The notes beneath the pieces were generated by a model. It did no database searches, was not told the origin of the DNA, and saw only the letters and a list, made by a program, of their open reading frames with translations. A DNA stretch of 6,181 nt from a virus (lineage: Duplodnaviria; Heunggongvirae; Uroviricota; Caudoviricetes), in the IMG/VR virus record IMGVR_UViG_2693429562_000008, one strand, 5' to 3'. Numbering within the stretch: the stretch's first letter is position 1; every line of letters begins with the position of its first letter. This document shows, one piece after another, positions 1,822 to 1,901 of the stretch. The position numbers were made by a program, and so were the translations under genes.

Positions 1822-1901
1822 CCGCCATTAGCTTATCAGGAAGAGCAGACGACACGATAACAGGGTTGTTGGTGCGGGGGCGGGTCCCCGATGGCGGTCC
1901 A
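1822..1901 (+). tRNA. tRNA-like sequence, probably a degenerate or remodelled tRNA-Arg (argN position)
   Basis: Acceptor (CCGCCAT/ATGGCGG), D arm and CCA match the intact tRNA-Arg(UCG) at 4369-4445. The anticodon/variable region is replaced by a 28-nt segment with no canonical anticodon stem, and the T loop is a non-canonical GCGGGT. Confidence 0.5.

Follow-up and report, generated by a model that had tools for sequence, protein, structure and literature searches.

The stretch of DNA analysed here (6,181 nucleotides, referred to at its full length as the window) belongs to a lambda-like prophage, of which it covers the late-regulatory region. In addition to genes for RusA, a Q-type antitermination protein and a DNA methylase, the whole window contains five tRNA genes detected by ARAGORN, which are arranged in two clusters, A and B (the latter spanning 4286-4535), and score between 58 and 72.5 bits on the Rfam tRNA model. 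The names ileZ-argN-argO for a cluster of this kind come from annotated Stx2 phage records. The relevant features are the following:

411-785: RusA gene (PF05866)
782-1636, + strand: Q-type antitermination protein gene, upstream of cluster A (Pfam PF03589, E = 7e-55)
1676-1695, + strand: terminator-like hairpin with a T run, between the Q gene and cluster A (terminator scan)
1701-1729, + strand: probable promoter of cluster A, TTGCGG, 17-nt spacer, TATTAT (read from the sequence; below the promoter-scan threshold)
1739-1814, + strand: ileZ of cluster A, anticodon CAT, intact, 5' neighbour of element X (ARAGORN; Rfam tRNA 72.5 bits)
1822-1901, + strand: element X, very probably a degenerate argN-family tRNA gene (pseudo-tRNA), 80 nt with an encoded CCA at its end (homology and synteny with argN at 4369-4445)
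1915-1991, + strand: argO of cluster A, tRNA-Arg, anticodon TCT, intact, 3' neighbour of element X (ARAGORN; Rfam tRNA 68 bits)
ending at 4245: DNA methylase gene (PF01555)
4286-4361: ileZ of cluster B, the same CAT gene as in cluster A (ARAGORN)
4369-4445, + strand: argN of cluster B, tRNA-Arg, anticodon TCG (UCG), intact paralogue of element X (ARAGORN; Rfam tRNA 58 bits)
4459-4535: argO of cluster B, tRNA-Arg(TCT) (ARAGORN)

Element X (hereafter X) occupies the argN slot, i.e. slot 2, of cluster A, 3' of the Q antiterminator. Its position is that expected of argN, between ileZ and argO and downstream of a Q or DNA methylase gene, with spacers of 7 nt to ileZ and 13 nt to argO. In loci identical to cluster A, ileZ carries the PGAP label tRNA-Ile.

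The promoter-like block ahead of cluster A is conserved before cluster B as TTGAAG-17-TATTAT (4248-4276), and the 3' edge of each block lies 9 nt ahead of its ileZ. Judging from these -35/-10-like motifs, the block is probably the cluster's own promoter. A tRNA promoter named 'pS' has been mentioned for Stx2 phages (PMC2858043).

A 137-nt segment is present in the window in three copies (2603-2739, 4527-4663 and 5128-5264; 100%, 66% and 100% identity with respect to the first copy). N-masked runs cut off the first two of these, and the last one continues into a sequence that matches the Rfam sRNA STnc100 over its full length (5213-5402; 132 bits, E = 7e-30). Runs of N, masked or unsequenced, extend over 2740-3049, 3116-3256, 3336-3390 and 4651-5127, and a 117-aa ORF without a Pfam match (2102-2455, + strand) lies between cluster A and the 137-nt repeat. 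The repeats and the duplicated tRNA cluster suggest that two late-region modules are joined in tandem in this genome. The arrangement of the window as a whole is absent from the collection of complete E. coli genomes searched, the best coverage at a single place being about 77% of the window.

Sequence and predicted structure of element X

An earlier note on this DNA had described a tRNA-like gene at 1822-1901 whose ends are conserved relative to the argN of cluster B, and both the alignment of the two clusters and a direct-repeat scan bear this out. Aligning cluster A (1690-2060) with cluster B (4237-4600) reveals homologous flanks around a divergent core of 41 bases (1843-1883); in the repeat scan, 1699-1842 corresponds to 4246-4389 at 94% and 1884-2004 to 4428-4548 at 91%, with 1843-1883 unmatched. 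The parts of X can be laid out as follows:

1822-1828, + strand: 5' acceptor strand CCGCCAT, pairing with 1891-1897 (same as argN; paired in the MFE fold)
1831-1846, + strand: D arm GCTT-ATCAGGAA-GAGC, with C13>T (giving a U-G pair) and one A fewer in the D loop than argN has
1847-1874, + strand: 28-nt segment AGACGACACGATAACAGGGTTGTTGGTG, standing where argN has its 22-nt anticodon arm and variable loop; predicted hairpin CGAUAAC-AGG-GUUGUUG
1875-1890, + strand: T-arm remnant CGGGG-GCGGGT-CCCCG, with T54 and T55 lost and a G run that varies in length among relatives
1891-1901, + strand: 3' acceptor strand ATGGCGG, discriminator T and CCA (same as argN)

Two changes set the first 25 nt of X (CCGCCATTAGCTTATCAGGAAGAGC) apart from argN: the substitution C13>T, through which a C-G pair of the D stem becomes U-G, and one A missing in the D loop. 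The last 18 nt (GTCCCCGATGGCGGTCCA) are identical. The interior is indeed a different 28-nt segment, and the T loop is GCGGGT (6 nt) against TTCAAGT in argN, as the earlier note had it. The 29-mer formed by the segment and the preceding C (1846-1874) has one match in the window, with 0 expected. The similarity between X and argN is due to homology and not to chance, the cluster being syntenic across hundreds of phages and thousands of genomes, and the comparison places X on the same tRNA body as argN. In the majority allele of X the acceptor stem and the D arm are left standing, along with a T stem of 5 bp.

With regard to folding, the AACA/TGTT hairpin that had been pointed out is present in the 28-nt segment, but the segment is not confined to such a short hairpin, its best predicted fold being a 7-bp stem, CGAUAAC/GUUGUUG, with three G-U pairs and an AGG triloop. 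For X as a whole, structure prediction of the kind that had been proposed as a check gives a cloverleaf-like minimum free energy fold, with this 7-bp/3-nt-loop hairpin at the place of the anticodon arm; its z-score against shuffled sequence is -1.29, no better than shuffles, versus -2.85 for argN. The minus strand of X folds no better than shuffles either, and the terminator scan detects no terminator-like site in X. The open reading frames overlapping X also span tRNA genes, and a coding reading was discarded as spurious.

X lacks the decoding features of a tRNA

ARAGORN calls X neither as a tRNA nor as a tmRNA and finds no anticodon in it. The Rfam tRNA model (RF00005; gathering threshold 29 bits) yields no match to X at E<=1 over the whole window or at E<=10 over the 101 nt from 1812 to 1912, whereas the neighbouring genes reach 68-72.5 bits and argN 58 bits. 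The covariance-model search also returns no match of X to any Rfam family, tmRNA and other tRNA-like families included. X escapes ARAGORN and Rfam because of two separate lesions, namely the 28-nt segment and the T loop GCGGGT in place of TTCRAGT.

In X there is no canonical anticodon arm, understood as a 5-bp stem with a 7-nt loop that carries U33, the anticodon and a purine at position 37; the predicted arm has a 7-bp stem and a 3-nt loop or, alternatively, a 5-bp stem and an 11-12-nt loop. Since the interior differs, the UCG anticodon on the CCAGC/GCUGG stem of argN is missing as well, and so is a 7-nt T loop with T54-Psi55-C56. The 7-bp acceptor stem, the discriminator, the CCA end and a D arm with G18 and G19 are all in place. 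Lacking a 7-nt anticodon loop and T54-Psi55, X is incapable of decoding, in agreement with the non-decoding character considered for it before. The identity bases by which ArgRS recognizes tRNA-Arg are C35 and G/U36. Both are gone from X, which makes its charging by ArgRS unlikely.

Distribution and annotation

Of 5426 complete E. coli genomes, 1813 (about one third) contain the exact 80-mer of X, at 2062 places in all; it is thus more frequent than the intact argN allele that was queried in the same set, which is found in 1208 genomes and annotated as tRNA-Arg. Phage mEp460 contains the 331-nt stretch 1700-2030 with 100% identity, many complete E. coli genomes contain it with at least 99%, and X is carried by this viable phage and by other isolated phage records. 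The N-masked runs and repeated segments of the window might raise the suspicion of a sequencing or assembly artefact; such a reading is refuted, with a vanishingly small probability, by the presence of the exact 80-mer in hundreds of independent complete genomes and phage records.

Among the matches listed, none has an annotated feature under the exact form of X. At the identical locus of E. coli 042, for instance, PGAP annotates tRNA-Ile and tRNA-Arg only. A literature search on ileZ, argN, argO or tRNA pseudogenes and prophages returned no description of X, and tRNAs are unmentioned in PMC3430580. A paper on stx2i prophages (2026) refers to a 'tRNA-pseudo' and to a tRNA of unknown amino acid in the ileZ-argN-argO cluster (PMC13641118).

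The two lesions of X occur separately and together in related loci

Relatives were fetched from IMG/VR, GTDB species-representative genomes and GenBank phages. The counts below refer to the paired-cluster sample:

Intact UCG arm with a normal T loop: 63 loci, many argN alleles
28-nt segment with the normal T loop TTCGAGT: 9 loci, including phiP27, L034 and L133
28-nt segment with the G-rich T-loop lesion (the window form): 98 loci, plus 3 close variants
Intact UCG arm with the T-loop lesion GGCGGGT or AGCGGGT: 1 locus (L058), with L376 and L387 found later

The two lesions of X are separate events. Given that each of them is found alone in relatives, the X allele is a shuffled double mutant, and the existence of all four combinations points to recombination, or recurrence, having shuffled the lesions within 80 nt. 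From these sequence comparisons X emerges as a double mutant assembled by recombination (or recurrence) in a highly mosaic region, in keeping with the earlier suggestion that recombination took part in its formation. The earlier note had also held that lesions common to relatives, as in an obvious pseudogene, would speak against a tRNA-like RNA, and this is the situation encountered.

As for the single-lesion forms, the L058 type, with the UCG arm and the T-loop lesion, is still called tRNA-Arg(tcg) by ARAGORN. The phiP27 type, in which only the anticodon arm is affected, is probably the precursor form of X. It reaches 26.4 bits on the Rfam tRNA model, below the cut-off of 29, with a 12-nt insertion placed in the anticodon loop; in the phiP27 record only ileZ and argO are annotated and the middle element is not, while a phiP27-like copy in an Stx2e prophage, 92.6% identical to X, bears the PGAP label tRNA-OTHER.

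Both the alignment of the phiP27 form by the tRNA model, with its 12-nt anticodon-loop insertion and 26.4 bits, and the tRNA-OTHER label could be taken to mean that X is a working tRNA with an expanded anticodon loop of 11-12 nt on an ACGAC/GUUGU or CGACA/UGUUG stem. X itself, however, is also devoid of T54/T55 and has no tRNA score, presents no U33-NNN-purine loop, is missing the ArgRS identity bases C35 and G/U36, and carries a G run whose length varies, which leaves this interpretation with a next to negligible likelihood.

With respect to the T loop, the 81-nt allele with six Gs corresponds to TT>GG at positions 54/55, and from it the window allele differs by the lack of one G. Other G-run alleles have 4, 9, 10, 12, 13, 14 or 16 Gs, a range of 4-16. 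This variation of the X T loop (window 1876-1880) is seen in loci L007, L112, L132, L134, L135, L146, L148 and L217, and the long runs (9-16) are linked with a T8>G change. The variation in the long runs reflects either homopolymer slippage or sequencing error.

A truncated version of X is found in E. coli A1.S1.160 (L227, 1501-1549), where the element ends after 49 nt and argO is absent. An annotated DUF3927 gene starts 38 nt past the truncation, and the 3' half of the cluster is in this instance deletable.

Slot-2 variants and the origin of the 28-nt segment

The 28-nt segment has no detected donor: a search of 50,697 phage records by blastn (word size 11), with the 41-nt junction as query, found none, and a short-word blast of all fetched loci together with a 3-mismatch search of the window found none outside X. 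Scanning metagenomes for sequences related to, but diverged from, the X interior returned only the L086 type (see below) and unrelated tRNAs.

Other slot-2 genes share the acceptor/D-arm body beside an ileZ-type gene, namely the Arg-UCU, 'Lys-UUU', L327 and L086 variants. The Arg-UCU arm, ATCAAC-CTTCTAA-GTTGAT, is present on the same tRNA body in the late-region clusters of L269 and L285. The 3' part of the X interior, GTTGT-TGGTG-CGGGG, resembles these members (GTTGA-TGGTG-CGGGG) and not argN (GCTGG-YTGCG-CGGGG), so the probable ancestor of X is a paralogue of the UCU type, or a related one, that would have had its anticodon loop destroyed, and not the UCG gene itself.

The 'Lys-UUU' variant of the body is very common in IMG/VR (at least 81 copies) and is also found in Escherichia phage PhiR47_1 (L242, 1593-1669), L243, L244 and L247. 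Its anticodon loop, CCTTTAA, is two changes apart from the Arg-UCU version of the same body and has a C at position 33 in place of the near-universal U33. In addition, there is an A-C mismatch in the T stem, and the gene scores 40.4 bits in PhiR47_1, with neighbours at 65-74 bits. ARAGORN and the record annotation both call it tRNA-Lys(UUU); this form may be a working Lys tRNA, a remoulded Arg tRNA or another decaying copy.

In L327 (726-807), an 82-nt gene called 'tRNA-Leu(CAG)' has a 28-nt interior that is identical to that of X at 16 of 28 positions, and forms a perfect 7-bp hairpin, AACAACA-CCAGA-TGTTGTT. The existence of a related interior shows that the aberrant arm of X is not a single very recent accident. 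A decayed slot-2 copy adjoining a degenerate ileZ and an intact tRNA-Thr occurs in L086 (237-314), L225 (8738-8815) and L234, where it is called as a 78-nt 'tRNA-Ser(GCT)'. A triloop hairpin shared by X and L086 was considered as a case of structural conservation and rejected, the paired positions not being homologous. Slot 2 seems to be the unstable position of these tRNA clusters.

Mutational load and selective constraint

Distinct mutational events were counted in 101 loci of the G-run lineage, many of which were found via a 25-mer pattern search:

ileZ (76 nt): 6 events
argO (77 nt): 9 events, among them a T-stem pair with compensating changes (51 C>G with 65 G>C)
X (80 nt): 19 events

The event rate in X exceeds that of ileZ and argO combined (15 events in 153 nt) by a factor of 2.4 (p = 0.008), rising to 3.2 outside the ascertained 25-mer (p = 0.001) and amounting to 2.2 for substitutions only (p = 0.04), in a comparison of limited power that is based on few events and on loci from pattern searches. 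Among 25 distinct alleles, no compensatory pair appears in the predicted structure of X, the variation being too low for a strong covariation test, and seven of eight acceptor-stem variants break the pair. Compensation is missing for the rare acceptor-stem alleles C4>G, C4>T and T7>C as well as for G>A changes at positions 72, 73 and 76; among the variants within the 28-nt segment, the commonest, G35>C, disrupts a pair of the predicted hairpin. The intact argN alleles vary mainly in loops or from G-C to G-U. Moreover, some genomes have a 17-nt deletion that removes the 3' end of X and the spacer. X therefore combines homology and synteny with a functional tRNA, loss of decoding features and an absence of selective constraint, the latter with moderate support from a small pattern-search sample.

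The earlier note had argued that a simple decaying pseudogene would not be expected to keep both ends so well. This argument does not stand: the spacers flanking X are as invariant as its ends, the whole cluster is near-invariant among carriers, and the rare alleles just described break the acceptor stem without compensation. Because the non-coding spacers are equally conserved, the well-kept ends reflect a young allele and not selection on the ends themselves, and the lesions of X are local events, few in number, in an allele that is young and has spread widely.

These data bear on the two ways in which X could still be functional, which even jointly are unlikely. One is that X is a non-decoding tRNA-like RNA, excised from the ileZ-X-argO precursor by RNase P and 3' trimming and acting as a small RNA, such as a putative decoy of tRNA-binding or tRNA-cleaving proteins. 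The majority allele retains a 7-bp acceptor stem, the CCA end, the D arm and a 5-bp T stem, one complete E. coli genome in three carries the element, as does a viable phage, and the 28-nt segment sits on several scaffold backgrounds; given these intact stems, X might be an RNase P substrate and give rise to a stable small RNA. On the other hand, X matches no Rfam family, its fold is no better than shuffles, covariation is absent and variants break pairs, its mutational load is above that of its neighbours, its T loop is now a slippery run of 4-16 Gs, its 3' part is deleted in some genomes, and the spacers are conserved like its ends, which again indicates the youth of the allele. We consequently regard a functional tRNA-like RNA as very improbable.

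The other is a putative cis role, whereby X is a processing spacer with a minihelix that registers RNase P/RNase E cleavage for the maturation of ileZ and argO. The tight gaps of 7 nt and 13 nt, a conserved promoter-like block that suggests a single transcription unit and the preservation of the ends around a destroyed interior would all fit such a role, yet related clusters work with very different slot-2 contents and spacings, and there are alleles that break the acceptor stem, as well as the 17-nt deletion covering the 3' end and spacer. A processing spacer is hence quite improbable as well.

Discussion

Taken together, our findings make it very probable that X is a tRNA pseudogene of the argN family, carried along with two functional tRNAs. 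The findings allow us to propose a model in which the anticodon arm would first have been lost from a slot-2 tRNA, T54/T55 would then have changed to GG in the T loop, the resulting G run would have slipped in length, and the lesions would have been reshuffled by recombination. In view of the conserved promoter-like block, X is probably transcribed with its neighbours, as part of one short transcription unit with ileZ and argO, and would be trimmed from the precursor during the maturation of these two. A misfolded tRNA product is expected to be degraded by tRNA quality control. The persistence and commonness of X could be due to its location at 7 nt and 13 nt from two intact tRNA genes, so that it would hitch-hike with ileZ, which serves AUA codons, and argO, which serves AGA/AGG codons.

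It is also conceivable, though with slim prospects, that slot 2 houses a single tRNA body that has its anticodon arm remodelled time and again, in a series that would comprise Arg-UCG, Arg-UCU, 'Lys-UUU' with C33, and the 28-nt interior of X together with L327. X would in that case be a retained, processed, non-decoding member with a putative role of its own, such as diverting factors that bind or cleave tRNAs, whether as decoy or as competitor, or serving in cis for the maturation of its neighbours.

The pseudogene reading has a practical side, since a very common 80-nt stretch of E. coli prophages, under which the exact-form matches listed have no annotated feature, can be labelled pseudo-argN. 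The relatives of X provide a natural series of the death of a phage tRNA gene while its two neighbours stay, and the pattern suggests that, among the three tRNAs for rare codons that these phages supply, the CGA/CGG reader is the dispensable one. Were the RNA of X to be stable and functional, contrary to the evidence, it would constitute a widespread prophage tRNA-like RNA.

In comparison with known systems, X is closest to argN as found in the ileZ-argN-argO cluster of lambdoid phages, Stx phages included, with which gene it shares the slot, the acceptor stem, the D arm (with two changes), the T stem and the CCA end, the clusters having the same promoter-like block upstream. It differs from argN in that the anticodon arm and variable loop are an unrelated 28-nt segment and the T loop is GCGGGT instead of TTCRAGT, and argN is recognised by ARAGORN and the Rfam tRNA model, whereas X is recognised by neither. 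The middle element of phiP27 and the Stx2e prophage has the identical 28-nt interior in the same slot, but it retains the T loop TTCGAGT and C13 and reaches 26.4 bits, while in X the T loop is also lost. The remaining slot-2 variants have different anticodon arms, the Arg-UCU form being canonical and the L086 form separately decayed, with a 3-nt loop. Like bacterial and phage tRNA pseudogenes in general, X has a syntenic working homologue, several lesions, uncompensated stem changes and apparent homopolymer slippage; unlike typical ones, it is unusually frequent, occurring in one third of complete E. coli genomes, and its ends are well formed, the allele being young and linked to two tRNAs that are still intact and are called as tRNAs in the loci examined. 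In the light of these likenesses and differences, X is most likely an ordinary dead copy rather than a new kind of RNA.
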